Source of the DNA: Brevinema andersonii
GTDB taxonomy: Bacteria; Spirochaetota; DYKD01
NCBI GenBank assembly: GCA_020722765.1
Contig: DYKD01000008.1
Coordinates: 1,304 to 65,303, forward strand
Length of the DNA stretch: 64,000 nucleotides
Direction: 5' to 3'
Each line of letters begins with the position of its first letter. Within the stretch, counting starts at the first letter, position 1. A model generated the notes under the pieces. The model made no database searches. It saw only the letters and a list, made by a program, of their open reading frames with translations, and was not told the origin of the DNA. Of the stretch, positions 4,756 to 63,836 are shown piece by piece. Made by a program: the position numbers and the translations under genes.

Positions 4756-4800
4756 CTTAATTCAAAAATTCATCTCCTTGTTCTAATCCTTCACGCCCCC

Positions 4801-23435: not shown

Positions 23436-23822
23436 TCAAATTCCACCCTTTGACATTATTTTCGAGAAAACCCTGTCCATAACCTTCATGGAGTTACGGC
23501 GAAGCTGACATTCCCAAATGGTCATCACAGACCAACCAAGACGGCGCAACTGCCGTATACATTTCCTGTCACGCTCCCTATTGCTCTCAATCTTCTTCTT
23601 CCAAAACGCTTTCCTTGACTTTGGCATCCTAAAAATCTTGCATCTGCTATGGCCATGCCAGAAACATCCATTTATGAAAAGAATCAATTTTTGTGCTGGC
23701 AGGACAATATCAGGAGTTCCAGGCAGAGATTTTTTATTTGCGGAAAACCTGATCCCGTTCTTTCGCAGGATGCTTTTCACGATCCTCTCAGGTTGCGTGT
23801 TCTTCCCCCTGATCCGGCTCAT
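23436..23822 (-). CDS. vsr: very-short-patch-repair endonuclease Vsr
   Basis: MSRIRGKNTQPE...PDIVLP...FINGCFWHGH...W.VMTIWECQL is a canonical Vsr sequence. The ORF extends to 23879, but the internal ATG is the likely start. Confidence 0.85.
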   Translation of the reverse strand: MSRIRGKNTQPERIVKSILRKNGIRFSANKKSLPGTPDIVLPAQKLILFINGCFWHGHSRCKIFRMPKSRKAFWKKKIESNRERDRKCIRQLRRLGWSVMTIWECQLRRNSMKVMDRVFSKIMSKGGI

Positions 23823-23853
23823 TATGTAGGAACGCTTCTCCGCAGTGAAAATA

Positions 23854-30171: not shown

Positions 30172-31719
30172 ATGGAAACTGAAATTCTTGTCATTGGCAG
30201 TGGCATCGCCGGTCTCACGTCCGCTGTCATGGCTGCTTCCCACGGTTTTAACGTAACTCTTGTCACAAAAAACATGGATCCGCTTGAAAGCAACACATAC
30301 TACGCACAAGGCGGAATTGTTTACAACAAGAATGAAGACTCTCCCACAACTCTTGTCACTGATATCATAAAAGCCGGAGATGGTCTTGTCAGCAGACCAA
30401 TCGCTGAAATCGTAGCAAAACAAGGTTATAAGATCGTTGACGACCTTCTCATCAGAAAAGCGAAAGTCCCTTTCAACAAGGAAAACAGCCATTTCCTTCT
30501 TACAAAAGAAGCCGCACACTCGCGTCGTAGGATCCTTTTTGCTGACGACGCCACAGGAAAATCAATCATTGAAAGCCTCTATAAATATGCATCTGCAAAC
30601 AAACGGATAAAAATCATTCCCAACAGTATTGCTATTGACATCCTCACTCTTGACCATCATACAGACGACATTAAGGCAGTCTATGAAAAACCAGAAGCCA
30701 TAGGGGCATACATCTATAATGAGAAATCCAGAAAAATAGAGAAAGTCATAGCCAAAGCGACGATCCTTGCCACGGGTGGAATCGGACGGATCTATAAGCA
30801 TTCATCAAATCCAGACATTGCCACAGGTGATGGAATCGCCATGGCAGCAAGAGCTGGCGCAAAAATCATAAATATGGAATACACCCAGTTCCATCCCACA
30901 ACACTCTACTCCCACCTCAACAAGAATTTTCTGCTTTCTGAATCCTTACGTGGTGAAGGAGGCATCCTCATTAACCAGGCAGGAAAGGAATTCATCAAAC
31001 ATCCCAAAGGTTCACTCGCACCCCGCGACGTAGTTTCACGCGCCATCAATGAAGAAATGATAGCTACACACAAGGATTTTGTCTATTTAGACCTGTCTCA
31101 CATCACAAAAGTGAACATCAAAGAACGCTTCCCTACCATATATAAGGAATGTCTCAAGCATAATATCGATATTACCAAAGACTTCATTCCTGTCGTTCCT
31201 GCATTCCATTTTTCCTGTGGCGGAATACGTGTCAATGAATGGGGGAAAACCAGTATTGGAAACCTCTTCGCTGCAGGAGAGTGTGCATGCACAGGACTTC
31301 ATGGTGCCAACAGGCTAGCGAGCACATCATTGTTAGAAGGCGCCACGTTCGGTACCCGCATTGCCCAATACATTGCAAACAACAGAAAGATTTACATGGG
31401 CAAAAAAATCCCCCCAGTACGCGACTGGGTCGCTAAACGTCTCAACACAAGCTCAGATCCTGTACTCATCAGGCAAGACTGGGAAACACTCCGTAACACT
31501 ATGTGGAACTATGTTGGAATTTCAAGATCAACACACAGGCTCAACCGCGCTATCCGTGATCTCAACAACCTTCATCTTGCCATTGAAGACTTCTACAGAA
31601 ACACGGTTGTCACAAAAGCCATTATAGAACTCAGAAACGCTGTCCAGACCGGTCTTATCATAACACATTCAGCCTGGCAAAACAAAGAATCACGTGGTTG
31701 TCATTACAGAGTAGATTAA
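30172..31719 (+). CDS. nadB: L-aspartate oxidase
   Basis: FAD GxGxxG motif (ILVIGSGIAGL), a fumarate-reductase/succinate-dehydrogenase flavoprotein fold, about 515 aa, and a C-terminal HYRVD motif typical of NadB. Confidence 0.75.
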   Translation: METEILVIGSGIAGLTSAVMAASHGFNVTLVTKNMDPLESNTYYAQGGIVYNKNEDSPTTLVTDIIKAGDGLVSRPIAEIVAKQGYKIVDDLLIRKAKVPFNKENSHFLLTKEAAHSRRRILFADDATGKSIIESLYKYASANKRIKIIPNSIAIDILTLDHHTDDIKAVYEKPEAIGAYIYNEKSRKIEKVIAKATILATGGIGRIYKHSSNPDIATGDGIAMAARAGAKIINMEYTQFHPTTLYSHLNKNFLLSESLRGEGGILINQAGKEFIKHPKGSLAPRDVVSRAINEEMIATHKDFVYLDLSHITKVNIKERFPTIYKECLKHNIDITKDFIPVVPAFHFSCGGIRVNEWGKTSIGNLFAAGECACTGLHGANRLASTSLLEGATFGTRIAQYIANNRKIYMGKKIPPVRDWVAKRLNTSSDPVLIRQDWETLRNTMWNYVGISRSTHRLNRAIRDLNNLHLAIEDFYRNTVVTKAIIELRNAVQTGLIITHSAWQNKESRGCHYRVD

Positions 31720-32500: not shown

Positions 32501-32806
32501 ATGGAAGATAATCCGATAAAAGATTTACAGGCATGGTATTCCAACCAATGCAACGGTTCATGGGAAAGCCTATATGGAATTACCCTTGAAACAACAGATA
32601 TTCCAGGATGGCGGATTGCCATTGACTTGGATGAAACCCTTGTTGCAGACAAGGACATGCCAGAAATTATTGAAGGGCAGGAAGGTGATGCAAATTACAT
32701 GTACTGCAGGAAGACTAATTCCCAGTTCCTTGCCACTTGCGCTCCCGGGCAGCTCAATAAAGTGATTACTTTTTTCCTGGAGTGGGCGACTATAAAAACA
32801 AAATAA
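32501..32806 (+). CDS. hypothetical protein
   Basis: 101 aa, acidic, with a W..Q/C.GSWE...GW.I motif. It may be a small immunity-like or DUF protein. No firm call. Confidence 0.3.
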   Translation: MEDNPIKDLQAWYSNQCNGSWESLYGITLETTDIPGWRIAIDLDETLVADKDMPEIIEGQEGDANYMYCRKTNSQFLATCAPGQLNKVITFFLEWATIKTK

Positions 32807-34936: not shown

Positions 34937-35806
34937 ATGGAGGAAGAAATGATTATTAACCACAATTTAAGTGCGATCAACGCAAGTCGAACTCTCAAGT
35001 TCACAGCTTGGGATCTCAACAAGAACCTCGAAAAATTATCCTCAGGGATGAGGATCAATCGAGCAAGTGACGATGCTTCAGGTCTGGCTGTTTCCGAAAA
35101 AATGAGGTCACAGATCAGAGGCCTCAGGCAAGCTGAAAGAAATGCTGAAGATGGCATTTCCTTCATTCAAACCACTGAAGGTTACCTTCAAGAAACGACA
35201 GATGTCCTTCAGCGAATCCGAGAACTTTCAATCCAGGCTGCCAATGGTGTTTATACTACTGAAGACAGAATGCAAATCCAAGCGGAAGTTTCCCAGTTAT
35301 CTGACGAAATAGATCGCGTGGCTTCGCAGGGTCAATTCAATAAGATGAACATTTTGACAGGCAGATTTGCCAATACTAGTATAGGCGGGTTGCCTACTGC
35401 TTCCATGTGGTTCCATATCGGAGCCAATCAGGATCAGAGAGTACAAGCCTATATCGGTACGATGACCGCCTTTGGATTGGGTATGAGGACTTCGAGTGGG
35501 ACAAATTTCTCGATTTCATCGATTGATGGCGCTAATTCCATGATTACTAAAATCGATGCAGCCCTTTTGAAAGTCTCAAAGCAGAGAGCTGATTTAGGGG
35601 CGTATCAGAACAGATTGGAATTTACAGCTAAAGGATTGATGATCGGATATGAAAATCTCCAAGCCTCTGAGTCGCGTATAAGGGATTCAGACATGGCAGA
35701 AGAGATGGTCGGTTTCACGAAAAACCAGATCCTCATGCAGTCCGGGACTTCCATGCTAGCTCAAGCGAACATGCTCCCCCAGACGATTCTCAAGCTCTTA
35801 GGATAA
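34937..35806 (+). CDS. flaB: flagellin (spirochete FlaB-type), copy 1
   Basis: [18 protein letters not shown]...[27 protein letters not shown]...QNRLEF...MLAQAN, 289 aa. Confidence 0.9.
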
Positions 35807-35877
35807 TGCTGGGCAGACATTTTTCAAGAGAATTTAAAAAAAATTAAAATAATTATAGTCACCTAGGAGGGGAACTT

Positions 35878-36720
35878 ATGATTATTAATCACAATCTCAG
35901 CGCTATCTTCGCGCAACGCCAGCTGAAATTCAACAACTGGAATGTTGACAAGGATATGGAGAAACTATCCTCAGGGATGAGGATTAACCGCGCAGGCGAT
36001 GATGCTTCAGGTCTCGCTGTCTCCGAAAAAATGCGGTCACAGATTCGTGGCCTCAGACAGGCTGAAAGAAATGCTGAAGACGGCATTTCCTTCATTCAGA
36101 CTTCAGAAGGCTATTTGCAGGAATCGCAGGATATCCTCCAGCGTGTCCGCGAACTTGCCATCCAGGCTTCCAACGGAATCTACACTCCCGAAGACCGGGC
36201 ACAGATCCAGGTTGAAGTAGGACAGCTCGTTGAAGAAATGGCACGTGTTGCACGTGACGGCGAATTCAACAAGATGTCCATGCTAACAGGACGTTTCTCT
36301 GATGCGAACACAGGAGTTGCTGCAACAGCTTCCATGTGGTTCCACATCGGTTCGAACCAGGATCAGCGTATCCGCGCTTTTATTGGAGACATGTCTCCAA
36401 AAGGTCTCGGGGTGGAAAATCTTTCCATCAGCACTCCTGAATCATCCAACACGACCCTTGGTCTTGTTGACAATGCACTTCAGAAAATTTCCAAACAGCG
36501 CGCAGACCTTGGTGCTTATCAGAATCGCCTTGAATTCACAGCCAAAGGACTTATGACTGCTTATGAAAATATGCAGGCATCAGAGTCACGCATACGTGAT
36601 ACGGACATGGCTGAGATGATGGTCGATTTCACGAAGAACCAGATTCTCCAACAGTCAGGCACAGCTATGTTGGCACAGGCCAACCTAAAGCCACAGTCAA
36701 TTCTTGCCCTTCTGAGATAA
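35878..36720 (+). CDS. flaB: flagellin (spirochete FlaB-type), copy 2
   Basis: 280 aa, paralogous to copy 1. The conserved termini are identical and the central domain has diverged. Confidence 0.9.
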
Positions 36721-36740
36721 GGTTAAAAAGAACATTATAC

Positions 36741-36774
36741 AGGACAGGACGTAAGTTCTGTCCTGTTTTTTTTT
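36741..36774 (+). terminator. rho-independent terminator after flaB copy 2
   Basis: AGGACAG-gacgtaagtt-CTGTCCT followed by T9. Confidence 0.7.
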
Positions 36775-36842
36775 CTTTAGGATTTCTTCCTGATTCCGAT
36801 ACCATAGGAAGAGATCACTGTAATCCAAGGGGTGATTGAAGA

Positions 36843-37199
36843 ATGTTCAAACCCGTCTCTTCAGATATGCATGAATACACGGGATTCGCCATGAAAGATC
36901 CACTTGCGCAAAGCCAACGGACACGTCTGGCCATGGAACAGATCCAATCCAAACACGAATCTGTGCGTCAGGGCATAGACAAGAATTTGGACCAGGCACT
37001 ACGCAAGATTCAACATACGGCGGACATCTTCAACACCAAACTCAGCTTCAGCGTCCATCAAAACACCCATAGGATCGTGGTCCGTATTATTAATAGCGAA
37101 ACGAACCAGGTTATCAAGCAGATTCCCTCACAGGAAATCATCGATGTCACCGATCAAATCCAGAAAATTTTAGGAATGTTCGTTGACAGAACCAGCTGA
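36843..37199 (+). CDS. flaG: flagellar protein FlaG
   Basis: 118 aa. The C-terminal FlaG pattern (HRIVVRIINSETNQVIKQIPSQEIIDV) and its position between flagellin and fliD support the call. Confidence 0.7.
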   Translation: MFKPVSSDMHEYTGFAMKDPLAQSQRTRLAMEQIQSKHESVRQGIDKNLDQALRKIQHTADIFNTKLSFSVHQNTHRIVVRIINSETNQVIKQIPSQEIIDVTDQIQKILGMFVDRTS

Positions 37200-37220
37200 T
37201 AACCTCGTCTAGAGGAAACC

Positions 37221-39254
37221 ATGGCCGTAGGTGTATCAGGACTTTCATCAGACATTGACACGCAAGACCTCATCAACAAGCTGGTTGAAGTAGAAAAAAA
37301 ACCGCTCGCCCGGATGCAGGAAGAAAAAGAGATACTCAACCTTAAAGTTGAAGTTCTTGATGAACTGAACAAAAACCTCTCTATACTTAAGGAATCTTCT
37401 TACAAGTTATACGGATTGGAATCAGTATTCAGGGGAAAAAAGGCTTTTGGCGTGAATGAGGATTTCTTCACTGCTGTTGCCAATCCAAACGCCATACCTG
37501 GAAACATCAAACTTGAAATCATACAACTGGCTGCAAGCCACAGTGTGGCGTCTGCCCCTTTTCCAACAACTACTGAATTCAAAAAAGGCACTTTCCTGAT
37601 ACGCGTTGGAACAAACGAGAAAAGTATAGAATTTGACGGTGGCTCAGGAGAGCAACTCATCTGGTCCATCAACAAACAGGCAGGAGACTTAGTCGATGCA
37701 GGAATCATACAGGACACTGCAGATTCAAGTGTCCTCTCGCTTTCAGGGAAAGCCACAGGCAAAGACAATTACATCGACCTTAAAGATCCCGATGGGATTT
37801 TTTCAACAATTCCCCTGTTAAAAAAGAAAAAAAACTCCTCTTTTGATCTTGACCTTTCAACATTCAATATTTCTTCCCTTGAACCTTATGAAGGATATAA
37901 GACATCACTCAAGACTTTGGCAGGAAACGCATTTATTGACCAGAGTTCCTTGATCCTTGACAATTCTGCCAGAGAGATGACCATAGAAGAAACAAAGGCA
38001 GACATCAATACTGTCATGCAAGTGACATGGTTGATGAGGACAAAAACAAGAAAAATTGAAGAGAAAAAAGAAATCCAGAACAATACAGATTCCGAATCCC
38101 TTTTTTCCCGTATCTTTTCCGTTAAAGTGAAAGAGATTGAGATAAAGGGCGCTCCTTTTGCTCTCAATGTCCCTGAGGCAGAACCAGAAAATTCGACTGA
38201 AAAAAAACCTGTACCAAAAGAGAAAGAATCCGGAATTGGCATTGCCATGAAATCCGGAACTAAACGGATTGAAAAGCTTTTCCCCTTGGAATCCACAACA
38301 ACAGAAAAAACCGTTGAAATCCCGCTGGATAAAGGCTTTGACTCTTTCAACAGCATTATCTTCTATTCTGAAGATGATAATTCCGAACTTGTACTCAAGA
38401 AAGTCAGCATCATCAACAAGTCAAAAGGTGGAATGGAATTCGCGCAGACGTTCCAAGAACCAAAAAACTCATTATTCAAAGTCAACGACATAGATGTGGA
38501 ACGCTCAAAAAACAACAACATAGAAGACGTCTTAAAAAATATTTCCCTCAGCCTAAAACAGGTGACTGAAAAACCGCTCTCTTTCCATGTTGATTATGAC
38601 AAGGAAAAAATAGAGAACAATGTGACCCAGTTTGTGACAAACTACAACAAATGCCTGAACATGATGATGGATCTTCAGAAATCCAAGGAAGTGACAAAGC
38701 CTGGTGATTACGACAGGTCTGAAAGAGGTCTGCTTGCTGGAGACATTACGATCAACAACATCAGGAGCCGCATGCGAGCCATCATGATAGCCCCATACCC
38801 CACATCCATTTCCAACAGACTTGTCTTGCCCATGCAATTGGGCATTTCAACGGGTAAAGTCAACACTCCTATAGATGAAGTGAGATCTGGCTTTCTGAAG
38901 TTTGATAAAGAACTCTTTAGGAAGATTTTTGAAAGATATCCCCAAGCAACAGCAGAGCTTTTCGGTTCTGATACAGATGGAAATAAGATTATTGATAACG
39001 GCGTAGGATATACGATGTATGATTTCCTGATGAATGTGACACGTCCCAAATCGGGGATGGTTAACCTTATGGTAGATAAGATAAAAACAGACATTGATTC
39101 CAAGAAAAAGCAAATCAAGACAAAAGAGGACCAAATCGCTTCCTATGAGGAAAAACTCAAGGTACAGTTCCTGAACATGGAAAAGAACATGTCCGGCCTC
39201 AAGGCGCAGCAGAAATGGATGGATCAGCAGATGAACAACAAGAACAAAGATTAA
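37221..39254 (+). CDS. fliD: flagellar filament cap protein FliD
   Basis: N-terminal (GLSSDIDTQDLINKLVEVEKKPL) and C-terminal coiled-coil FliD regions, 677 aa. Confidence 0.8.
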   Translation: MAVGVSGLSSDIDTQDLINKLVEVEKKPLARMQEEKEILNLKVEVLDELNKNLSILKESSYKLYGLESVFRGKKAFGVNEDFFTAVANPNAIPGNIKLEIIQLAASHSVASAPFPTTTEFKKGTFLIRVGTNEKSIEFDGGSGEQLIWSINKQAGDLVDAGIIQDTADSSVLSLSGKATGKDNYIDLKDPDGIFSTIPLLKKKKNSSFDLDLSTFNISSLEPYEGYKTSLKTLAGNAFIDQSSLILDNSAREMTIEETKADINTVMQVTWLMRTKTRKIEEKKEIQNNTDSESLFSRIFSVKVKEIEIKGAPFALNVPEAEPENSTEKKPVPKEKESGIGIAMKSGTKRIEKLFPLESTTTEKTVEIPLDKGFDSFNSIIFYSEDDNSELVLKKVSIINKSKGGMEFAQTFQEPKNSLFKVNDIDVERSKNNNIEDVLKNISLSLKQVTEKPLSFHVDYDKEKIENNVTQFVTNYNKCLNMMMDLQKSKEVTKPGDYDRSERGLLAGDITINNIRSRMRAIMIAPYPTSISNRLVLPMQLGISTGKVNTPIDEVRSGFLKFDKELFRKIFERYPQATAELFGSDTDGNKIIDNGVGYTMYDFLMNVTRPKSGMVNLMVDKIKTDIDSKKKQIKTKEDQIASYEEKLKVQFLNMEKNMSGLKAQQKWMDQQMNNKNKD

Positions 39255-52536: not shown

Positions 52537-53583
52537 TCATTGCATTTCTAACCGCGAGTCCCCCCACTCATCCCATCCTATCTCATTTCCTGTGCTGTTA
52601 ATTCTTGAAACGATGTATTCATGGCATTCAACAGGATTATCCTTCAAGCAAGCCTTTCCATCATAAAGTGAATATTGGCTTCTGTATGATGCTGGAGTCA
52701 AATTTGGCATCATGATATTAGCTCCAGCTTTCAATCCATTTTCCCATCCAGATGAATTACTGACCTGAAGTGCTGTTGATGCGACAATATTCATACGAGG
52801 TCTGCAGATCCTCATTATGGCAATCATTTTTAGTGTAAGTTCAAATCTCTGCTCAAGGGAAAAACCAGACTTGATATTTCTTAATGGAGCATTGAGATGT
52901 TCAATATAAGGCCCCATTCCGATCATATCAAAACCTGATTTTAGCATAAAAACAATATCATTCGCCAAATCTTCCAATGTCTGACCTGGCAGACCAATCA
53001 TGACTCCGGAACCGACAATGTACCCTGTCTTTCGCAAGTTGCTGAGAGCCTCAATCCTGCTATCAAAACTGTGGAGCTTATCATCAGGATGAATTTTTGC
53101 ATACAAATTCCTATTGGATGTTTCAATCCTAAGAAGATATCTGTGGGCTCCTGCCTTAAACCAACGGGAATAAGTCTCATCTGTCTGTTCCCCCAAGGAA
53201 AGAGTGATTCCAATTTTCCCTTGTGAAATTTTCTTGATTTCCACGAGAAGAGCCTCAATATCACTGATAAAAGCAGGGTTTTGTTGTTCTCCAGATTGAA
53301 GTACAATGCTCCCGTACCTGTTTTCATACGCATAATGGACCGCATCAAGAACTTCCTTTCTTGGCAAAGCATATCTCTCCAATCCGTTATTCCCTGATCT
53401 TATGCCACAATACAGGCAATTTTTCCTGCAAATATTCGAATACTCTATAAGACCACGAAGAAAGATCTTGTTTCCTCTCTGTTTCATTTTTATATCATAT
53501 GCCTTGGCATACAAGGCATTCAAATCATCCTTAGACGTCAGTGACATGTAATGAAGAATTTCAGATTTTGAAAGAGCATTCAT
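52537..53583 (-). CDS. hydE: [FeFe]-hydrogenase maturase HydE (radical SAM)
   Basis: CRKNCLYCGIRSGN is the radical SAM CxxxCxxC motif. The protein is 348 aa with a BioB-like fold. It sits directly downstream of hydF and overlaps it by 4 nt. Confidence 0.7.
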   Translation of the reverse strand: MNALSKSEILHYMSLTSKDDLNALYAKAYDIKMKQRGNKIFLRGLIEYSNICRKNCLYCGIRSGNNGLERYALPRKEVLDAVHYAYENRYGSIVLQSGEQQNPAFISDIEALLVEIKKISQGKIGITLSLGEQTDETYSRWFKAGAHRYLLRIETSNRNLYAKIHPDDKLHSFDSRIEALSNLRKTGYIVGSGVMIGLPGQTLEDLANDIVFMLKSGFDMIGMGPYIEHLNAPLRNIKSGFSLEQRFELTLKMIAIMRICRPRMNIVASTALQVSNSSGWENGLKAGANIMMPNLTPASYRSQYSLYDGKACLKDNPVECHEYIVSRINSTGNEIGWDEWGDSRLEMQ

Positions 53584-54857
53584 ATTGATACTGAAGAACC
53601 CAGGAAAGGCTCAATGACCCGTTCAAAAATACCATTGATATAGGCAATAGTCATTCCATAATTTGTGACTGGCACTTTTGCTTTGAGAAAATCATGAAGA
53701 CGACCTATAACCTGTTTTCTGGTCATCATACAGCCACCACACTGGATAACAAGGGCATATTCTGTTACTGGACGGGAGATTTCGCTATGTCCAGAAATAA
53801 TATCAAAATCCAGGGACCTCTGTGAAAACGCTCTGACCCATTTGGGAATTTTGCTTCTTCCAATATCTTCGCAACTTATCTGGTGTGTACAGGATTCAAG
53901 AATCAAAATGCGATCACCATCCTGAAGAGAGGAGAGTTTCCTGGTCCCTTTGAGATAATCATCAAATGGGCCACGCATATAGGCAAATGCTATGCTGAAA
54001 CTTGTAAGCATGATCTCTTTGGGAACAATGGAATCCACAAACTTGAATGCTTGACTGTCCGTAACCACAATTTTCGGTCTAATGCCTGAAGTCAAAAGAA
54101 AATGTTCAGCCTCTGTCTCTTTCAAGACGATGCTGACTCCGTTATTATCCAAAACATCCCTGATCATCATGACTTGTGGAAGTATCATCCTGCTATCCGG
54201 GGCCTCCGAATCAATAGGAGTGACAAGCAAGGCAATGTCATCTTTAGCAAGTAGATTGCCGAGTAAAGATGGATTCTGATAAGCTGTTTGTGGGATTGTT
54301 TTTTTTAACATGGCAATGACTTTGTCCAGATTTTGAAGCGTCACAGAACTAAAATCAATAGCGTCGATTCCTGCGAAAGAGCGAATCATTTCCACTTGAT
54401 TCTGCTGAAGTGGCTCCAAATCGCATTTATTATGAATAATCAGGAAAGGAATATCAAAATCACGAAATTTTCGGAGAAGTTCTTTTTCATATTCATCAAA
54501 AGAGTTCTGGAAGAAGAGCAGTATGGCACAGTCAATTTGCTTTATGACCGCAACGCTTTTTTCTACTCTTTTCTTACCTAACTCTCCCTCATCATCAATT
54601 CCAGCCGTATCAATGATTATTGTTGGACCTATGCCAAAAATTTCCATAGATTTTCTGACAGGATCCGTGGTTGTGCCTGCCACTGAAGAAACAATTGATA
54701 CATCCGATCCTGTAATGGCATTGATAAATGAGCTTTTCCCACTGTTGCATCTTCCAAAAATGCCAATATGCGGTTTATTGTCATTGCCTTTCATAAAAAA
54801 AATCCTTATCTCGGAAGTCGAACCTTCTACAAGTAAAGATAAGCAATCTTGACACAA
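53580..54857 (-). CDS. hydF: [FeFe]-hydrogenase maturation GTPase HydF
   Basis: GTPase G1 motif (GRCNSGKSSFINAITG), a dimerisation domain, and C-terminal cluster-binding CTHQ...QCGGC motifs. 425 aa. Confidence 0.75.
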   Translation of the reverse strand: MCQDCLSLLVEGSTSEIRIFFMKGNDNKPHIGIFGRCNSGKSSFINAITGSDVSIVSSVAGTTTDPVRKSMEIFGIGPTIIIDTAGIDDEGELGKKRVEKSVAVIKQIDCAILLFFQNSFDEYEKELLRKFRDFDIPFLIIHNKCDLEPLQQNQVEMIRSFAGIDAIDFSSVTLQNLDKVIAMLKKTIPQTAYQNPSLLGNLLAKDDIALLVTPIDSEAPDSRMILPQVMMIRDVLDNNGVSIVLKETEAEHFLLTSGIRPKIVVTDSQAFKFVDSIVPKEIMLTSFSIAFAYMRGPFDDYLKGTRKLSSLQDGDRILILESCTHQISCEDIGRSKIPKWVRAFSQRSLDFDIISGHSEISRPVTEYALVIQCGGCMMTRKQVIGRLHDFLKAKVPVTNYGMTIAYINGIFERVIEPFLGSSVSI

Positions 54858-55372: not shown

Positions 55373-55990
55373 CTAATTTATTTTTTCCGCAATAATGATA
55401 TTCTGAAATTCACTGGCCATTTCACTTGTAATCATACCTATCTTATTCAGATATTCTTTGGCTTTCTGCATGGGCCAACCAACAACATCATGCGTTCTAC
55501 CTTCAGATAAATGTACATCATCCATAATCTTAAAAGTTTTTTCTGTAAAATCGCTCAAAACGAGTCTACCACCCTTTTTAAGAATCCGTATCAGTTCAGA
55601 TAGAACTTTTTCAGAATTCCGTAGATGGTGCAGTGTATTAACACAGAAAATCAGATCAAAGCATGAATCTGGAAAAGAGATCTTTTCAGCGTTTTCCAAC
55701 ACAAACTTCACATTGTCCTGCAATCCTTTCTTTGAAAGGTAATATTTGGCAATTTCCTGTCCTAATGCATCAATGTCAATGGATGTGAAAACATATCCTC
55801 TTGAGGCCAATTCACCAGTCATACTGCCCTTGCCAGTACCTACCTCTAGAATATTTCCTTTGATGGATCCAGCAGAATCAATGACAAAACGTCTTTCCTT
55901 CATAGGTTCATAACCATACTTCTGATATTGTTCCAACCTTTTTCTATGCCTGAGCTCACCTTCGCTTATCTCTTCATCAGAAATCATCAT
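55373..55990 (-). CDS. class I SAM-dependent methyltransferase
   Basis: Motif I is ILEVGTGKGSMTG. 205 aa. Confidence 0.65.
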   Translation of the reverse strand: MMISDEEISEGELRHRKRLEQYQKYGYEPMKERRFVIDSAGSIKGNILEVGTGKGSMTGELASRGYVFTSIDIDALGQEIAKYYLSKKGLQDNVKFVLENAEKISFPDSCFDLIFCVNTLHHLRNSEKVLSELIRILKKGGRLVLSDFTEKTFKIMDDVHLSEGRTHDVVGWPMQKAKEYLNKIGMITSEMASEFQNIIIAEKIN

Positions 55991-56051: not shown

Positions 56052-56882
56052 TCAGAATCTATAACATCGACCAACTGCACAGGTTGTGATAATTCCAGGC
56101 AACTTTTTTCGCATCAGTTTTACTGAATCTTCACCCGAGCAATGGCAGGCAGCTACTTTCAAGATGCCTTCCTTACGGATATAATCCACTGTCTGTTCCA
56201 AGCGTTCCTTACTGGCATTAATGAGATGGAGTCCTCCAACGACTGCTACAATCTTCTTTTTCGGATTCAATGTTTTTACATATTCACAGGTATTGATAAA
56301 TCCGGAATGGCAACAACCGGTGAGAACTACCAATCCATCATCCGTATTGATCCACATGGCAGATTCGTCAGGGATGAGATCAACTTCTTTTTTCTGAAAA
56401 TCCCGATAGAAGGAACCGCCAGTATCTTCAAAGGGAACCAAGCGAGGAATGGCACCGGTAAATCCATAGTGCGTTGCAAGGAGTGGTCGCTCCAACCAGC
56501 ATTTCCTGTTTTCTTGTAATGACTTAATCCTTTGGATTGATTTTTCATCTATTCCTATATACCTTGGATTTTCAGGATCCTTGAAACTGATATGAGTAGT
56601 CACAATCTCCGGATGTGCCACAAGAATTGCCTGTGGATTCATTTGAAGAATCCTATCCAAAGAACCTGTATGATCATAATGTCCATGACTTATAACGATT
56701 TTATCCAAATTTTCCAGACTTATTCCCATTTTCTTGCTGTTTTGAAAAATGGCCTCACCCGAACCCATATCAAAAAGTATTTTCTCCGTATGAATCTCCA
56801 GATGGGCAGAAAAACCATGTTCGGATCTATAGGAAAAGGAAGCGTTATTATCCACCAAAACACGTATTTTTACAGTCATCTC
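56052..56882 (-). CDS. MBL-fold metallo-hydrolase
   Basis: HxHxDH motif (ISHGHYDHTG). An internal ATG preceded by GGAGGG is the likely start. Confidence 0.65.
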   Translation of the reverse strand, partial: EMTVKIRVLVDNNASFSYRSEHGFSAHLEIHTEKILFDMGSGEAIFQNSKKMGISLENLDKIVISHGHYDHTGSLDRILQMNPQAILVAHPEIVTTHISFKDPENPRYIGIDEKSIQRIKSLQENRKCWLERPLLATHYGFTGAIPRLVPFEDTGGSFYRDFQKKEVDLIPDESAMWINTDDGLVVLTGCCHSGFINTCEYVKTLNPKKKIVAVVGGLHLINASKERLEQTVDYIRKEGILKVAACHCSGEDSVKLMRKKLPGIITTCAVGRCYRF

Positions 56883-57004
56883 ACCCTCCCGCCTGGCATT
56901 GCAATGAAGTGACAGTGACAACAGGAAAAACAATTGTCCGAACTTTAGCGGAAGCTATATCCTGCCGTTTCGAGAAAATTTCCAATTTGTTCAATGTAAA
57001 AAAA

Positions 57005-58648
57005 TCAATGATCGCAAGCGTTCACGCCTGCCTTCAACTCACCTTTCAAGAAAGCATTAGCGAGATTTTCAGGAGTATCTGGTGAACAACCGACAAGAAC
57101 CTCAATATTCTTTTCCTTGAAAAGTGATTGAGCCATCTCCCCCATACCACCGGCAATAATCATGTTTACACCTTTATCTCCCAGCCATTTAGGCAAAAGC
57201 CCTGGTTGATGGGGAGGTGCATCCAAATTTGTCCTTGAAATGACTATTTTCTTTTCCATATCCACTTCCATTACAGCAAAGGCGTTGCAATGTCCGAAGT
57301 GAGGGTTCAGCTTGTTGTTGTTAACTGGAATAGCAATCTTCATCGTATTCTCCTTTTGGTTTTTAGCTACAAAAAAATTCTTGATCTTGGATACAAGATT
57401 CGAATTTACCTCTTTCGATTCATCTTTTTTAAGACCAAGTGAGTTTCGAACTTTTTCTACTATTTCTGAAAGTACTGTTTCTTCCTTCTCAATGAAAGTT
57501 GTTCTCCCTTCATCAGAATCAAGCCTAATATCAGGCTCAATAGGAATGGATCCGAGAAGGGGAAGGTCAAACTGTTTGGCAAGAGTCTCTCCTCCGCCTG
57601 AACTGAAAATGTCTGTTTTTGTCCCACAATGAGGACAAACAAAACCGCTCATGTTTTCCACAATACCAATCACATCCAAAGAAAGCTGTTTGCAGAAGTT
57701 AAGTGACTTTCGAACATCTGCAGCTGAAGCTTCCTGTGGTGTTGTAACAACAAGCGCTTTTGTATCTTTTCCTAAAGTTTGCACCACTGAGAGGGGTTCA
57801 TCTCCTGTTCCTGGAGGTGAATCTACAACAAGCATATCCAGATCTCCCCAGCCGACATCCCGAATGAGTTGTTTTATGACTCCGATTTTCATTGGACCTC
57901 GCCAGATGACGGCATCATCAGGATGACGGAGCATAAATCCCATGGAAATCACCTTGAGATTATTAAGCCGTTTTATTGTAACAGGAACAATAGCTGTCCC
58001 ATCAGAGGTTAGTCCTTGTTCCTTTATTCCCAACATTAAAGGCACGCTGGGACCGTGAAAATCCACATCAAGCAGACCTACACGCAAGCCTGAAAGAGCC
58101 AAGCCTGCTGCCAGATGAACAGCCACAGTACTTTTTCCGACTCCTCCTTTTCCAGAAAGGACAACAACCTTGTTTTTTATGGTTGAAAGCCTGCCAGCAA
58201 TCTGGGCATCCTCTTCTGCCTGGCTTGGCTGAGTCTCCTTCGGTATTGAACAGGAAGAAACCGGCTTTTTTTCATTTTTCTCCTTGTAAGAAGCAACGAC
58301 TTTTTTCAAGGTATCTACAGAAAGAAGGGCGCAATGAAAAGATTCCGTTGGAATATCACCGGCTACAGCTAACACTTCCTCAGGGATCATCTTATCAAAA
58401 TAGGAAAGTCCCTTTCCACAAACGAGATTTGCAGCTGCTGTCCCACATGCTATGGAATCCGCACATCCATCTGTTGTAAATGAGGCTTCCGTAACCATTC
58501 CATCCTGAATGCGAAGCCAGAATTCCATCGTATCACCGCAAGATCCCGTAAGTCTCCCATTTGCATCAGCCTGTTTGAGCGGACCAAAATTGTGCGGGAG
58601 TGTTCTCTTTACTTGTTCATAGTCATGTTGGTACATAATTTTTTCCAT
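57005..58648 (-). CDS. tri-domain fusion: IscU/NifU-N-like scaffold + Mrp/NBP35 (ApbC) P-loop ATPase + NifX/NifB-like (FeMo-co-type) domain
   Basis: The N-terminus has conserved Cys (GSCGDTM...DGCADSIACG...FHCALL) as in IscU/SufU. The middle has a deviant Walker A (LSGKGGVGKST) and CPHCG as in Mrp/NBP35. The C-terminus (MKIAIPVN...LNPHFGHCNAFAV) resembles the dinitrogenase FeMo-cofactor-binding (NifX/NafY-like) domain. Confidence 0.6.
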   Translation of the reverse strand: MEKIMYQHDYEQVKRTLPHNFGPLKQADANGRLTGSCGDTMEFWLRIQDGMVTEASFTTDGCADSIACGTAAANLVCGKGLSYFDKMIPEEVLAVAGDIPTESFHCALLSVDTLKKVVASYKEKNEKKPVSSCSIPKETQPSQAEEDAQIAGRLSTIKNKVVVLSGKGGVGKSTVAVHLAAGLALSGLRVGLLDVDFHGPSVPLMLGIKEQGLTSDGTAIVPVTIKRLNNLKVISMGFMLRHPDDAVIWRGPMKIGVIKQLIRDVGWGDLDMLVVDSPPGTGDEPLSVVQTLGKDTKALVVTTPQEASAADVRKSLNFCKQLSLDVIGIVENMSGFVCPHCGTKTDIFSSGGGETLAKQFDLPLLGSIPIEPDIRLDSDEGRTTFIEKEETVLSEIVEKVRNSLGLKKDESKEVNSNLVSKIKNFFVAKNQKENTMKIAIPVNNNKLNPHFGHCNAFAVMEVDMEKKIVISRTNLDAPPHQPGLLPKWLGDKGVNMIIAGGMGEMAQSLFKEKNIEVLVGCSPDTPENLANAFLKGELKAGVNACDH

Positions 58649-59502
58649 ACTCCTTGTATTTCAGATTTTAATTTTTGATTTTCAGTTTCAATGATACTTT
58701 TTCCCTGCAGTTGTGCCTGTGTGAATGTCTTGTCGTAAGAGATGCGTCCTAGGATAATTCCTCCTGCTTTCAAACTTTCTTCCTCGATAGTATTAGTCAT
58801 TTCCGGATTTACGTCCCACTTGTTAATACAGACAAAAAGTTTTATTTTAAAATGCTTTGCCAGGTCTGCAACACGTTTCAAGTCATGTCTTCCTGAAACT
58901 GTCGGTTCAGTCACGGCCACAACAGCATCAGCACCTGTCACAGAAGCAATAACCGGGCAACCAATTCCTGGAGGACCATCTACAAAAAGAAAATCATAAT
59001 TTCCTTTCTCCGCAATATTTCGCGCCTCTTTCCGTACAAGTGAAACAAGCTTCCCGGAATTCTCTGATGCGGTCCCCAGTTTGGCATGAACCAAGGGTCC
59101 CACCCGAGTCATCGATTTCATCCAGACGCCACAATTCCGATCAGGGAAATCGATGGCTTTCACAGGACAGAACTGGACACAGACACCGCAGCCTTCACAA
59201 GCATTTGAATCAATATCAAAACGGATATCCCCTGATGACGTTTCCGTTTTCTTGACAGCATCAAACTTGCAAACTTCAAGACATCTTCCACAGCCAATAC
59301 AGGTCTTATTGCGGATGATGGCTTCATGACCGGATATGAAATCGTGCTGTTCCTGGATTTTTGGTTGCAAGAGAAGATGCATATCAGCAGCATCCACATC
59401 ACAATCCGCAATGACAGGATGATCCGCCAAAAAAGAGAATGCCGCAGTAATACTTGTTTTCCCCGTTCCACCTTTTCCGCTTATGATCACAATCTCTTTC
59501 AT
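58609..59502 (-). CDS. MinD/CooC-like P-loop ATPase with inserted 2x[4Fe-4S] ferredoxin domain
   Basis: Deviant Walker A (ISGKGGTGKTS) and two CxxCxxCxxxCP motifs (CIGCGRCLEVC; CEGCGVCVQFCP). 297 aa. Confidence 0.7.
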   Translation of the reverse strand: MKEIVIISGKGGTGKTSITAAFSFLADHPVIADCDVDAADMHLLLQPKIQEQHDFISGHEAIIRNKTCIGCGRCLEVCKFDAVKKTETSSGDIRFDIDSNACEGCGVCVQFCPVKAIDFPDRNCGVWMKSMTRVGPLVHAKLGTASENSGKLVSLVRKEARNIAEKGNYDFLFVDGPPGIGCPVIASVTGADAVVAVTEPTVSGRHDLKRVADLAKHFKIKLFVCINKWDVNPEMTNTIEEESLKAGGIILGRISYDKTFTQAQLQGKSIIETENQKLKSEIQGVWKKLCTNMTMNK

Positions 59503-60356
59503 GACAGTCCTCCTTTCTTCTCTTTTACAGAAGCATCAATCTTTTGCCTAAGAGAGAGAAAAAGATTCCTATATTCAGGGAGGGCATCAATCATCCTGAT
59601 TCCTTTCGAATAAGCCTCCATGATACGTCTGTCATCCGGAATTTCCAGTAAAAGAGGGATTTTTTTAGTCTTGCAATATTCATGAACCCTGTTATCACCT
59701 GATCCATTTCGGTTGACAACAACACCAAAAGGAAGTTTTAATTCCTGGATCATATCCACTGCCAAAGAGAGATCATGAAGTCCGAAAGGTGTAGGCTCAG
59801 TCACAAGTACAACAAAATCCGTATCACGGACAGAGGTAACAACAGGACAGGATGTACCTGGGGGAGAATCTATGATGACAAGGGGGGCTGATTCACTCAT
59901 CTTCTTGAGGGCGCGGATGACAGGGGGCGATGTGGATACACCTACATCCAGCTTTCCCTGAAGCAGTGTCATTTTATCCTTCCTGAAGGTTGTAATTTTT
60001 CCAATTGTTCTTTCGACTTCGGTTATGGCTCCACGTGGACAAACGAGCTTACAACCACCACAACTATGACAGAGTTCTGGGAAGATGAGAGGCTTTGTCC
60101 CAAAAGCTACGATAGCCTTATACTGGCAAAATCTAGCACACAATCCACAAGCATCACATTTGGATTCATCAACAATCGGAACCAACACATTTACCGGCTT
60201 CTCGCTTATTTGTTCTGCTGAAAGAAAAAGGGCAGCATTGGGTTCTTCCACGTCACAATCCAATAGAGTGACAGGTTCTTCGTAAATGCCAGCCAAGTTG
60301 ACGGAAAGCGTGGTTTTGCCTGTTCCACCTTTTCCAGAAGCAATAGATATTTTCAA
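59499..60356 (-). CDS. MinD/CooC-like P-loop ATPase with inserted 2x[4Fe-4S] ferredoxin domain (paralogue)
   Basis: ASGKGGTGKTT plus two ferredoxin motifs (CDACGLCARFC; CHSCGGCKLVCP). It overlaps the downstream paralogue by 4 nt. Confidence 0.7.
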   Translation of the reverse strand: MKISIASGKGGTGKTTLSVNLAGIYEEPVTLLDCDVEEPNAALFLSAEQISEKPVNVLVPIVDESKCDACGLCARFCQYKAIVAFGTKPLIFPELCHSCGGCKLVCPRGAITEVERTIGKITTFRKDKMTLLQGKLDVGVSTSPPVIRALKKMSESAPLVIIDSPPGTSCPVVTSVRDTDFVVLVTEPTPFGLHDLSLAVDMIQELKLPFGVVVNRNGSGDNRVHEYCKTKKIPLLLEIPDDRRIMEAYSKGIRMIDALPEYRNLFLSLRQKIDASVKEKKGGLS

Positions 60357-60524
60357 TTCATAACTCCTTCATCCTTGTTTCTAAGTAAGGATTTTGTCGT
60401 ACTGTGAAGGACATTGGTACCCAAAGGAACATTCAACATTTCTGAAACAATATCACTTTTGGCTTGAAGAAGGAAAAAAGTTTTCTGATGTGTATCATGC
60501 AAAGATTCATAATTACCCTGTCCT

Positions 60525-60812
60525 TTAGAGATGATCATGAATCTCTTTACGTAACCAAGGGACCATCTCCTCAACGATCTTTGAAATCTTTCGCTTTGCT
60601 TCCTGATAAGGATCCTGCTGTGAGAAATATTTCCTGATTATGCGTTGAATATGCTGCACCTGATATGGAGGAGACCGGGAATAATCCATACTTGTAATCC
60701 ATGTTAACACGTCACGCATCACATTCTCCATTACCTGAGGATCATCTGTCAAAGCCTTGATAGATTTTAAAGCCTGCTTAACAAAACAAGAAACACATTC
60801 AGTCGTCTCCAT
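60525..60812 (-). CDS. small hypothetical protein (Cys-containing, helical)
   Basis: The internal ATG (METTECVSCF...) lies just after the stop of the upstream NifX-like gene. The long ORF upstream of this ATG overlaps that gene and is probably not translated. Confidence 0.35.
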   Translation of the reverse strand: METTECVSCFVKQALKSIKALTDDPQVMENVMRDVLTWITSMDYSRSPPYQVQHIQRIIRKYFSQQDPYQEAKRKISKIVEEMVPWLRKEIHDHL

Positions 60813-60816
60813 TTTA

Positions 60817-61179
60817 TCAGATCCAGTGCGATGCCACATTGGCATCTTCCAGAGGTTTGAGCAATCCAGCCTGGAGCTGCTGTAGTGCTTCGGATATTGT
60901 CTTGGCTGTTGTGTTATAAACTTTGATACCAGCCATGGAAAGGACCTTGAAGGCCTTAGGGCCACAATTCCCTGTAACTAGGGATTCAGCACCAGAACGG
61001 GCAACCGCTTCTGCAGACTGGATTCCTGCACCTTGAGCCAGATCCATATTTTGATTGTTGTCAAACACAGTAAAGGATTTCTGTTCTGTATCATAGATGA
61101 GAAATTTCGGAGCACGACCAAATCGTTGGTCTAATGCAGATTCGAGATTTTCACCTGATGTAGTAAAAGCAATTTTCAT
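60817..61179 (-). CDS. NifX/NifB-like (dinitrogenase FeMo-cofactor biosynthesis domain) protein
   Basis: MKIAFTTSGENLESALDQRFGRAPKFLIYD is the typical N-terminus of PF02579-type proteins. 120 aa. Confidence 0.65.
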   Translation of the reverse strand: MKIAFTTSGENLESALDQRFGRAPKFLIYDTEQKSFTVFDNNQNMDLAQGAGIQSAEAVARSGAESLVTGNCGPKAFKVLSMAGIKVYNTTAKTISEALQQLQAGLLKPLEDANVASHWI

Positions 61180-61426: not shown

Positions 61427-61780
61427 TTAAGCATCCTTGTCATCTTCCTTATCCAATTCAGAAATCCTAGAATTCAACCCTTGGATTTCTTCCTGGAGAG
61501 AAGAGACATAAGCTTTGAGATTATCTTTCACAGCTTTCTTGCTTTGTGTGGGATAAGCATACTGGTCAAACTGATAGCCTCGGCCCCAACCTGGGAGACC
61601 AGTTGCATAAAACTGGTTCCTGTAACCATGACCACCACCCATTCCAAAGCCTCTTCCAAATCCAGCTCTTCCACGGCCAACATTCATAAACCCTGGCATT
61701 CCATAACCATTACAAAAGCCAGCGCCTCTTCCTGTCCTTGACCCCATTCCCATGGGACCTGTACCATTTCCTCTAGCCAT
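61427..61780 (-). CDS. DUF5320 family glycine-rich protein
   Basis: The N-terminus is glycine/arginine-rich (MARGNGTGPMGMGSRTGRGAGFCNGYG...GRGRAGFGRGFGMGGGHG). The C-terminus is a coiled coil (LKAYVSSLQEEIQGLNSRISELDK). Confidence 0.55.
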   Translation of the reverse strand: MARGNGTGPMGMGSRTGRGAGFCNGYGMPGFMNVGRGRAGFGRGFGMGGGHGYRNQFYATGLPGWGRGYQFDQYAYPTQSKKAVKDNLKAYVSSLQEEIQGLNSRISELDKEDDKDA

Positions 61781-61807: not shown

Positions 61808-62191
61808 TCATTTTTTTTGTCTTCTAAATCCATGCCCACCTCTCCAGCCATGATGTCTTCTGCAACCTGGCATCAGGTATCGCGTATTGGAAAGCTTCCC
61901 TTGGAGCCAAGCTTGCAAGACCTCATCAATCTCTCCAGAAACAAAGGAAAGAACCTCTATTTCTTTTGATGCAAGAATCTGTCGTGCACCGCAGGAGATA
62001 GAACCGCAGATAAGCGTCTTTACCTTTTTCCTCTCTAGAAAATCCGCTTTTGCAAAACATGACTCTTTCGGCAAAAGAAAGTCATCCCGTTTTAATGAAC
62101 CATCCTCAGAGCGTGAAAAAAAGGCAACAGAGGAAGCGGCGTCAAAAACAGGCGAAACCCTTCTGTTCCATGATGTAATCGCTATATTCAT
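61808..62191 (-). CDS. NifX/NifB-like domain protein with Gly/Arg/His-rich C-terminal tail
   Basis: MNIAITSWNRRVSPVFDAASSVAFF... is the NifX-like core. The tail is PGCRRHHGWRGGHGFRRQKK. Confidence 0.55.
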   Translation of the reverse strand: MNIAITSWNRRVSPVFDAASSVAFFSRSEDGSLKRDDFLLPKESCFAKADFLERKKVKTLICGSISCGARQILASKEIEVLSFVSGEIDEVLQAWLQGKLSNTRYLMPGCRRHHGWRGGHGFRRQKK

Positions 62192-62343
62192 AACAATGAT
62201 ATTGCAGAAAACGTGCCATGGGGAAAAAAATAATCTTCAGGTTAATTCGCATAAAGAACCCATTTAGAGAAGCAAGAAAACAATCTTTATCTTAAAACGT
62301 TGCAATAAAGCAACATTATGTAACAATATTGCAACAAGACAGA

Positions 62344-62924: not shown

Positions 62925-63836
62925 ATGGACTGTACCCAATGCCTCTCAAAAGGATGCAGAAAAAACAATGCCTGTACATCCGACAAACATCTTTATATAG
63001 AGGAATATGCGAATCCTAAAAACCAATCCATTACCAAAGCCGCGTCAAAACTTGTGGATAATGGCAGAGCTGGCAAACTCAACAGATTGGAAGAGATCAT
63101 AGAGTATTGCCAAATTAGGGGACATAACTATCTTGGCGTGGCCTATTGTTACGGCATGGAAAAAGAGGCTACGACATTGCGGAAAACCCTCAAACAGGCA
63201 GGGTTTAAACTTGAAATGGTCTCTTGCACTGTTGATGGCCTATCTGAAACAGAACTCGACAAGATGAAAACAAAAAAGACTGTCTCATGCAACCCTTTAG
63301 GTCAGACCAACGTCCTCAACCGCAAAGGGGTTCAGTTCACCATCCTGATGGGATTATGTCTAGGACATGACGTCATACTCCAGAACAGTTTAAAAATGGA
63401 TCATACAGTCTTTGTTGTAAAAGACAGAGTTCTTAACAACAATCCTATACAAGCTCTGCCAGGATTCATCTCACAAGAAGACCAATTCCTCATGAATTTA
63501 CCAAAAGATTTTCACCTTATCGATTCAGAAGCCTTGAACCATGTCCTTTCTGAAAAAAGGGAATCCGCCACTATCATCGACCTCAGACCTGTGGAACAGT
63601 ATAATAAAAACCATATCAAAGGTGCAGTCAATAGCCCCTTGAACCTGCTTATCACTGATTATAGGAGCATCCTAAAACATCCTGATACTCTTACCATAGT
63701 GTACTGTAATGGAGGCATACAATCCATTTACACGGTGATGTTCCTTGCCATGAAAGGATATAAAAATGTAAAGAGTCTCCAAGGTGGATTTTCCAAATTC
63801 CTAGGAACTTATCCTCATAAGGTGACACCATCTTGA
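62925..63836 (+). CDS. DUF1847 (Cys-rich metal-binding) domain fused to rhodanese-like domain
   Basis: The N-terminus is Cys-rich (CTQCLSKGCRKNNAC...). The C-terminal rhodanese fold has an active-site loop (IVYCNGGIQS). It is divergent from the polyferredoxin gene. Confidence 0.55.
   Translation: MDCTQCLSKGCRKNNACTSDKHLYIEEYANPKNQSITKAASKLVDNGRAGKLNRLEEIIEYCQIRGHNYLGVAYCYGMEKEATTLRKTLKQAGFKLEMVSCTVDGLSETELDKMKTKKTVSCNPLGQTNVLNRKGVQFTILMGLCLGHDVILQNSLKMDHTVFVVKDRVLNNNPIQALPGFISQEDQFLMNLPKDFHLIDSEALNHVLSEKRESATIIDLRPVEQYNKNHIKGAVNSPLNLLITDYRSILKHPDTLTIVYCNGGIQSIYTVMFLAMKGYKNVKSLQGGFSKFLGTYPHKVTPS

Follow-up and report, generated by a model that had tools for sequence, protein, structure and literature searches.

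In a 64,000-nucleotide stretch of Brevinema andersonii DNA (GTDB lineage Bacteria; Spirochaetota; DYKD01; assembly GCA_020722765.1, contig DYKD01000008.1, forward-strand positions 1,304 to 65,303), a single gene joins an IscU-like domain, an Mrp/NBP35-type P-loop ATPase domain plus a Di-Nase domain of the NifX/NafY superfamily in one chain. Below, the window means this whole stretch, and positions are counted from its first letter. The gene is a minus-strand open reading frame (ORF) at 57005..58648 whose rechecked coordinates give a product of 547 aa. From residue 142 to its end, this product is an orthologue of MrpORP with an IscU domain added in front, and the gene sits in a typical orange protein (ORP) cluster. 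We consider it probably to be an MrpORP-type iron–sulfur (Fe–S) maturation factor of that cluster, equipped with a dedicated, fused scaffold of the IscU type. As far as could be found, what is new relative to the literature is the N-terminal IscU module only, which is widespread in uncultured anaerobes.

Domains and ligand residues of the protein

Pfam places three non-overlapping domains on the protein, each above its gathering score: NifU_N (PF01592) at residues 18–127 (58268..58597, minus strand as for every part of the gene; E 5e-19, 69.1 bits against a gathering score of 22), the ParA/NUBPL Mrp-type P-loop (PF10609) at residues 157–402 (57443..58180; E 3e-94) and Nitro_FeMo-Co, or Di-Nase (PF02579), at residues 444–533 (E 2e-18), the last within a C-terminal domain that spans residues 436–547 (57008..57343). 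Two linkers lie between them, one at residues 128–156 (58181..58267) and another, variable across the family and partly of low confidence in the structure model, at residues 403–435 (57344..57442). An AlphaFold2 model built from an alignment of 76 homologues has a mean predicted local distance difference test score of 88.2 and contains three folded domains, with low-confidence linker stretches at residues 128–137 and 426–432. Pfam and the model, with Foldseek comparisons of the first two domains with the PDB, confirm the fusion of three domains in one polypeptide, which had been noticed in a preliminary description of this DNA.

The N-terminal domain resembles an Fe–S scaffold in both fold and ligands. 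Its best PDB relative by sequence search is A. fulgidus IscU (4eb5_C, E 4.8e-16), and Foldseek matches it to the IscU structures 4eb5_C, 7c8m and 2z7e with template modelling (TM) scores of 0.71–0.76. The three cysteines that had been read as those of a scaffold, C37, C62 and C106, do align with IscU ligands, as do D39 and H105: the CGD (C37-G-D39, 58532-58540), GC (C62, 58463-58465) and HC (H105-C106, 58331-58336) motifs fall on the cluster ligands of 4eb5 and of E. coli IscU. Fold, ligand set and approximate length are those of the scaffolds from A. fulgidus (4eb5), Methanothrix (7c8m) and Aquifex (2z7e), but here the domain is fused to a carrier ATPase, has an extra cysteine six residues past C62 and lacks the LPPVK motif, and its subfamily sits in ORP clusters, not beside a cysteine desulfurase. 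The preliminary description had called this end of the protein IscU/SufU-type. The IscU half of that label stands; a SufU identity we rejected, as both matches are marginal (28.7 bits to the SufU profile TIGR01994 against a cut-off of 92.5; SufU chains in the PDB at E about 5e-3, covering residues 18–82 only).

The rest of the chain is MrpORP. The MrpORP equivalog NF041136 scores 491.6 bits against a cut-off of 450 (residues 154–538 on profile positions 1–365), and residues 142–547 are 45% identical end to end (E 5e-131) to Dde_3202, one of two MrpORPs whose biochemistry is known; its sequence was taken from the supplement of PMC6345978. The P-loop domain carries the deviant Walker A motif SGKGGVGKS (residues 165–173, 58130-58156) and, within CPHCG, the CPHC motif of a bridging cluster (C338/C341, 57626-57637); its Foldseek matches are AF2382, Cfd1 and ApbC (including 2ph1, 6g2g and 8zkc; TM 0.64–0.87). 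In the C-terminal domain, HFGHC (57287-57301), APPHQPGLLP and a terminal CDH (57008-57016) are present, and its closest relatives in the PDB, at E about 1e-9, are 1o13 and 1t3v, Di-Nase proteins of the TM1290 type. MrpORP itself (Orp9; DVU2109 of D. vulgaris Hildenborough and Dde_3202 of D. alaskensis G20) has the same P-loop, deviant Walker A and CXXC, a C-terminal Di-Nase domain with HFGHC, PPHxPGxxP and terminal CDH, and a gene clustered with those for two MinD-ferredoxin ATPases and small Di-Nase proteins. The query adds an N-terminal IscU domain of 130 residues. The preliminary description was therefore right about the Mrp and NifX-like domains as such, but missed that two of the three parts of its unusual fusion are together a known protein and that the genes around them make up an ORP cluster. 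Its NifX/NafY-like label holds at the level of the Di-Nase superfamily, given by PF02579. It had also left two doubts about the fusion, that the N terminus might in truth be MIP18/DUF59 or that the C terminus might lack a NifX-type fold; the Di-Nase domain, together with the lack of any Pfam match to MIP18/DUF59 at E ≤ 0.01, answers both in favour of the observation.

MrpORP has been described as a two-domain protein, Orp9 of the Desulfovibrio ORP complex (PMC6345978). There, for the Desulfovibrio proteins only, its CXXC motif was shown to bind a bridging [4Fe-4S] cluster that is transferred to the ferredoxin-like ATPases Orp3 and Orp4. The cluster on its Di-Nase domain is a [3Fe-4S] one, which is passed on inefficiently. 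The MrpORP lineage was reported to lie nearer Nbp35/Cfd1 than bacterial ApbC, and the N-terminal Cys-rich stretch of the Desulfovibrio protein was likened to the extra cluster site of Nbp35 (PMC6345978). The same authors surveyed 17,511 Mrp/NBP35 members, finding 8862 with the P-loop alone and 7619 with DUF59 plus the P-loop (Pardoux et al. 2019, PMC6345978), which makes the assertion that Mrp proteins normally carry DUF59 about half true. Their architecture table includes P-loop + Di-Nase rows and a single NifU_N + AAA entry, and has no row for NifU_N + P-loop + Di-Nase (PMC6345978).

Several better-known systems share parts of this design. ApbC/Mrp (DUF59–P-loop) and HCF101 (DUF59–P-loop–DUF971) are, like the query, multi-domain carriers built on a CXXC ATPase core, but their accessory domains differ: the query lacks DUF59, and the Pfam search found no DUF971 in it either. 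A DUF59-type ApbC/Mrp identity was rejected on the missing DUF59 and on an ApbC equivalog score of 226.7 against a cut-off of 348. Eukaryotic Nbp35, the scaffold of cytosolic iron–sulfur assembly, is likewise an Mrp/NBP35 ATPase with an extra N-terminal Fe–S site before the P-loop; in Nbp35, however, this site is a short ferredoxin-like Cys motif, in the query it is an IscU domain, and most tri-domain relatives have an IscU domain and a Cys-rich motif together. In the nitrogenase pathway the same three superfamilies also meet, as NifU, NifH and NifX/NafY (and NifB, with its NifX-like domain), the NifH-type counterpart being a dimeric ATPase of the SIMIBI class that has a bridging cluster. In that pathway each part is a protein on its own, of nif-specific sequence, whereas the NifX equivalog TIGR02663 is not among the 25 of 32 matched NCBIfam families listed for the fused protein, and the 64-kb window contains no nif genes.

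The tri-domain family and its free-standing relatives

We defined the family as the best 120 database clusters at 90% identity, which are 45–53% identical to the query. All 120 have the PF01592 + PF10609 + PF02579 architecture, and by their source labels they come from seven or more lineages of phylum rank (Planctomycetota, Acidobacteriota, Thermodesulfobacteriota, Deltaproteobacteria, Hydrogenedentes, Sumerlaeota and Auribacterota). Clustering at 50% identity collapses the family to two or three representatives, which indicates one compact family, with the query as an outlying cluster of its own; the search of these representatives gives no member count. The NCBI pipeline names family members MrpORP, and other labels are 'P-loop NTPase' and 'chromosome partitioning ATPase'. 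Beyond the MrpORP paper, we found no report of an IscU–Mrp or NifU–Mrp–NifX fusion among open-access papers and bioRxiv, an absence that is no proof. The word unusual, as first applied to the fusion, thus fits the literature but not the databases.

Within the family, SGKGGVGKS and CPHC are identical in all 120 relatives, C319 of the P-loop domain is invariant, and so are C454, C545 and four histidines of the Di-Nase domain. In the N-terminal domain, C37, D39, C62, H105 and C106 are each kept in 119–120 of the 120 (at least 99%), although this is the most divergent of the three domains, with a mean identity to the query of 43% (56% for the P-loop and 53% for Di-Nase) and an overall identity of 35–55% across the family. 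Ligands preserved in so variable a domain point to selection for a ligand-competent scaffold, and we infer from this pattern that the domain may act as one. The extra cysteine, C68, is found in 97 of the 120 members.

The query departs from its family in several cysteines. Linker 1 contains at least four of them in 99 of 120 members, usually as CxxCx3-6C plus the cysteine of 'RLCRI', where two-domain MrpORP has its N-terminal Cys-rich stretch; in the query C133 stands there alone, against four cysteines in MrpORP, and 'RLSTI' has Ser for Cys. The motif lost from the query is possibly a fourth Fe–S site in the other members. In the Di-Nase domain, N448 replaces the first cysteine of the Desulfovibrio CxHFGHC, a position at which 16 of the 120 tri-domain relatives have Cys. 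Held against the three-cysteine pattern CxHFGHCE plus CDH, the query has the domain, HFGHC and CDH, with Asn for the first Cys. It also has a private cysteine, C521, where 118 of 120 members have Ala. That the C-terminal domain holds a cofactor, as had been proposed, is not established: the [3Fe-4S] cluster of the Desulfovibrio protein is poorly transferred, and one of the three conserved cysteines is missing here.

The IscU module also occurs outside the fusion, again in the company of ORP genes. Its nearest stand-alone relatives (46–58% identity, 122–136 aa) lie in ORP-type clusters, here called L087 and L088; the N-domain-only search behind them returned eight short proteins and missed the query's own entry, which makes it unfit for counting fused against free forms. 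In L087 the IscU gene directly follows two MinD-Fer4 genes, the position that the tri-domain gene holds in the query cluster, and it is followed by a small Di-Nase gene with no Mrp between, the locus of the two genes being 3917-4766. In L088 a CbiA-type gene comes before it, and rubrerythrin and CGGC genes come after. Three loci with split genes (L005, L006 and L038) were among the matches listed in a family-profile scan of genome contigs, which was seeded on the generic P-loop motifs SGKGGVGKS and DSPPGTGD, returned mostly ordinary Mrp proteins and is no taxonomic census. In a metagenome-assembled genome (MAG) of Desulfobacteraceae, L006 encodes a 415-aa two-domain MrpORP and then a separate 169-aa NifU_N protein, followed by DUF364 and MBL-fold genes, and the NifU_N protein has the signature TG.CGDT...TDGC..S..CG...HCA.L of the query family. 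The Phycisphaerales MAG locus, L038, has the same split layout. Other combinations are seen in single proteins, some of which may be fragments: IscU with the P-loop and without Di-Nase (for example, P0141, P0151 and P0168) and, in the 248-aa P0245, which may itself be a fragment, apparently IscU with Di-Nase and without the P-loop. P0245 and L087 suggest that Di-Nase modules may also be direct partners of the scaffold module.

Taken together, these loci point to an ORP-linked IscU subfamily that appears to be distinct from housekeeping IscU, and the fusion is thus one of several forms in which an IscU paralogue is tied to ORP genes. This recurrent, modular association is the strongest argument that the fusion has a functional meaning.

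The ORP cluster and the rest of the window

The tri-domain gene follows two genes for MinD/CbiA ATPases with an inserted 2x[4Fe-4S] ferredoxin domain, both Orp3/Orp4-like and on the minus strand. The nearer (58609..59502), a likely client of the tri-domain protein, is preceded by the second (59499..60356), with which it overlaps by 4 nucleotides. Farther upstream on the same strand are a small Di-Nase protein of 120 aa that resembles Orp8 and other orange proteins (60817..61179; PF02579, E 1e-23), a glycine-rich DUF5320 protein that is a conserved cluster member (61427..61780) and, as the first gene of the cluster, a second small Di-Nase protein of 127 aa (61808..62191; PF02579, E 1e-7, 32.6 bits against 26.3). 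Directly downstream of the tri-domain gene lies a gene for an MBL-fold protein (56052..56933, minus strand), then one for a methyltransferase (55373-55990).

Three other loci show the same arrangement: L085, from an Acidobacteriota MAG, L086, from a Planctomycetota MAG, and L084, on a 5-Mb contig. The order in them is DUF5320, small Di-Nase, MinD-Fer4, sometimes a Zn-ribbon gene, MinD-Fer4 and the tri-domain gene. The genes 3' of the tri-domain homologues encode 4HBT, CGGC or MBL proteins, an MBL-fold gene standing there in L084 and L086 and, downstream of the split genes, in L006.

That the start of the tri-domain gene overlaps the upstream MinD-ferredoxin gene, as the preliminary description had it, proved real. 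The upstream stop codon, TAA at 58609-58611, falls inside the tri-domain gene, so that the overlap is 40 nucleotides from the ATG at 58648 and 28 from the ATG at 58636. An AAGGAG lies 1 nucleotide 5' of the first and 13 nucleotides 5' of the second; both are candidate starts, and the second, chosen by database gene calls, would give a protein of 543 aa. In L084 and L086 the homologous genes overlap their upstream neighbours by 4–8 nucleotides. It is reasonable to expect from this layout that translation of the tri-domain gene is coupled to that of the MinD-ferredoxin gene.

Some further features of the cluster deserve mention. The orp operons of Desulfovibrio are sigma54-dependent, and L084 carries, as in Desulfovibrio, a gene for a sigma54 activator. 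A sigma54-type -24/-12 element, aTGGCACGttttCTGCA, is found between genes at 62204-62218 on the minus strand, ending about 13 nucleotides before the ATG at 62191 of the first cluster gene, and at such a distance the mRNA would have almost no leader; the pattern shows no enrichment in the window (59 matches against 49 ± 6 in shuffled sequence), in which no sigma54 activator gene was found. What looks like the remnant of a DUF89/ARMT1-like gene (60353-60965, minus strand) separates the first MinD-ferredoxin gene from the small Di-Nase gene; it consists of two short ORFs in different frames that match only profile positions 3–94 and 264–311 of 311, with the middle missing. In L087 a DUF89 gene that is intact lies beside the related cluster. 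In L006 (7114-7800, plus strand) a small Di-Nase domain and a glycine-rich DUF5320 are fused in a protein of 228 aa, which indicates that DUF5320 works with Di-Nase proteins. Divergent from the query cluster, at 62925-63836 on the plus strand, is a fusion of the Cys-rich DUF1847 with rhodanese, and no other candidate for sulfur trafficking lies nearby. The [FeFe]-hydrogenase maturases HydE (TIGR03956, 314 bits against 255) and HydF (TIGR03918, 460 against 326) are encoded at 52537-54857, about 2 kb downstream of the cluster and on the same strand; neither HydG nor a hydrogenase is encoded in the window, and this adjacency is not seen in L084–L086.

Elsewhere in the window, a 1131-aa ORF without a Pfam or NCBIfam match (18707-22102, plus strand) is preceded by a gene for an OmpA/TPR protein and followed by a weakly TPR-like ORF with one sub-threshold TPR_1 match (22099-23382). 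A Vsr mismatch endonuclease with a C-terminal segment resembling restriction endonucleases is encoded at 23436-23879 (minus strand), and no cytosine methyltransferase was detected next to it. At 32501-32806 (plus strand) stands an orphan gene for an Imm53 immunity protein, with no obvious toxin neighbour. A 1447-aa protein (25671-30014, plus strand) combines two BcrAD/BadFG ATPase stretches with DUF2229, the architecture of a coenzyme A-enzyme activase, and its gene adjoins one for a flavin adenine dinucleotide-binding, fumarate-reductase-like flavoprotein (30172-31719). Two flagellin genes, FlaG and FliD at 34937-39254 indicate a flagellated organism, an uncultured bacterium known from a metagenome of an anaerobic bioreactor. 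The threonyl-tRNA synthetase encoded in the window has relatives without organism names at 80–82% identity, while its best named relatives share 52–60% and belong to many different groups (Caldisericum, Deferribacteres, Cloacimonadota, Manganitrophaceae and Ignavibacteria).

Proposed mechanism, alternatives and meaning

If the protein is an MrpORP-type maturation factor with its own scaffold, the IscU domain would use C37, C62 and C106 to build a [2Fe-2S] cluster, the fourth ligand being D39 or H105, or possibly C68, and the sulfur coming from a donor that is not encoded beside the gene. The P-loop domains would dimerise as in other Mrp/NBP35 proteins, bringing two IscU domains near the C338-x-x-C341 pair, and a bridging [4Fe-4S] cluster could then form at the interface. 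Binding or hydrolysis of ATP at the deviant Walker A motif would control release of this cluster, which would be delivered to the two upstream, co-expressed MinD-type ferredoxin ATPases, the Orp3/Orp4 homologues. The Di-Nase domain might hold a cluster of its own or dock ORP partners.

Several observations weigh against this scheme. Its main weakness is that neither the 64-kb window nor the flanks of L084–L086 encode a cysteine desulfurase (Aminotran_5). The N-terminal domain scores far below the cut-offs of the housekeeping IscU equivalog TIGR01999 (50.2 against 192.4) and the clostridial NifU equivalog TIGR03419 (65.5 against 187.9), and the LPPVK motif for the HscA chaperone is absent, the query reading GDIPTESFHC and the family GGLPEES.HC; the domain is thus a divergent paralogue. 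Without the linker cysteines and the first cysteine of CxHFGHC, the cluster complement may differ from that of Desulfovibrio and of typical members. The geometry between domains is uncertain (AlphaFold2 predicted TM score 0.61).

The low equivalog scores and the lack of LPPVK, together with the absence of a desulfurase near any locus examined, would also suit a protein in which the IscU-like domain assembles nothing de novo and instead receives or holds a cluster, or senses redox state or iron and gates the Mrp ATPase, while clusters are made elsewhere by housekeeping ISC, SUF or minimal systems. C68 could allow ligation by cysteines only, as is typical of stable clusters and not of labile ones, and the title of PMC8359166 describes the Desulfovibrio orp regulator as using an Fe–S cluster for redox sensing. 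We nevertheless judge a receiver or sensor to be rather unlikely, given that the full set of labile-cluster ligands of true scaffolds, D39 and H105 among them, is kept in 99% or more of the family and that the fold and the best structural matches are those of bona fide scaffolds. Fe–S carriers, moreover, are usually of the A, Nfu or Grx type and not of the IscU type. A bolder idea extends the nitrogenase parallel, so that the NifU-like scaffold, the NifH-like dimeric ATPase with its bridging cluster and the NifX-like cofactor holder would work in line to assemble a complex or heterometallic sulfide cofactor that ends up in the small Di-Nase proteins, as in maturation of the nitrogenase cofactor. 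Orp8-type proteins do bind a non-covalent Mo/Cu sulfide cluster (PMC6345978), two small Di-Nase genes are present in the cluster, and the apparent IscU–Di-Nase fusion P0245 and the adjacent genes of L087 tie the scaffold to Di-Nase; related clusters repeatedly contain genes for radical SAM, DUF364 'heavy-metal chelation' and TrmO_N proteins. But the idea is speculative, and we give it little chance: the only available biochemistry finds MrpORP with ordinary [4Fe-4S] and [3Fe-4S] clusters and with ferredoxin-like partners as the recipients of transfer, and no genes for uptake or processing of Mo or W are found in the window. Similarly, we would be surprised if the module combinations seen in ORP clusters (all three fused, apparently fused IscU–Mrp, IscU–Di-Nase and Mrp–Di-Nase pairs, and split genes) together amounted to a self-contained, widespread, anaerobe-specific route to such an ORP cofactor that reaches beyond standard [4Fe-4S] delivery.

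Two other explanations fare worse. JGI annotations of 'chromosome partitioning ATPase', the putative link of the ORP complex to cell division and the polar localization of MrpORP in D. vulgaris (both PMC6345978) might suggest a ParA/MinD-like positioning or cell-division ATPase to which the Fe–S domains are accessory. This is very improbable: the P-loop is of the Mrp/NBP35 type with a CXXC that is 100% conserved, the MinD and ParA equivalogs score 46–58 bits against cut-offs of 180–213, and the best structural matches are Mrp, Cfd1 and ApbC, on which grounds a ParA/MinD identity was rejected. Separate IscU and MrpORP genes are known from other genomes, and a frameshift or assembly join between two such genes could in principle mimic the fusion. 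An identical ORF is found, however, in an NCBI MAG, a JGI metagenome and a Logan assembly, which are independent of one another, so it is no assembly artefact; 119 homologues at 45–53% identity have the same continuous architecture; and in the split loci the IscU gene lies 3' of MrpORP, so simple read-through would give the wrong domain order and cannot explain an N-terminal IscU domain. An artefactual origin is effectively refuted.

A maturation factor with its own scaffold bears on a question raised by the MrpORP paper, namely, whether cluster assembly on MrpORP depends on ISC/SUF or runs in parallel (PMC6345978). The IscU–MrpORP fusion, found in many lineages, offers a concrete and testable answer, in which the ORP system would bring its own IscU paralogue. 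It may also be taken as evidence, of the natural 'Rosetta-stone' kind, that Mrp/NBP35 proteins are fed directly from IscU-type scaffolds, with relevance to how ATPases of this class are loaded, including eukaryotic Nbp35–Cfd1 and bacterial ApbC. There is modest practical value in a single chain that would unite scaffold and carrier for in vitro study of [2Fe-2S] to [4Fe-4S] conversion. The insight is at the level of annotation, and a family now labelled 'MrpORP', 'P-loop NTPase' or 'chromosome partitioning ATPase' can be better described as MrpORP with an N-terminal IscU-type module.

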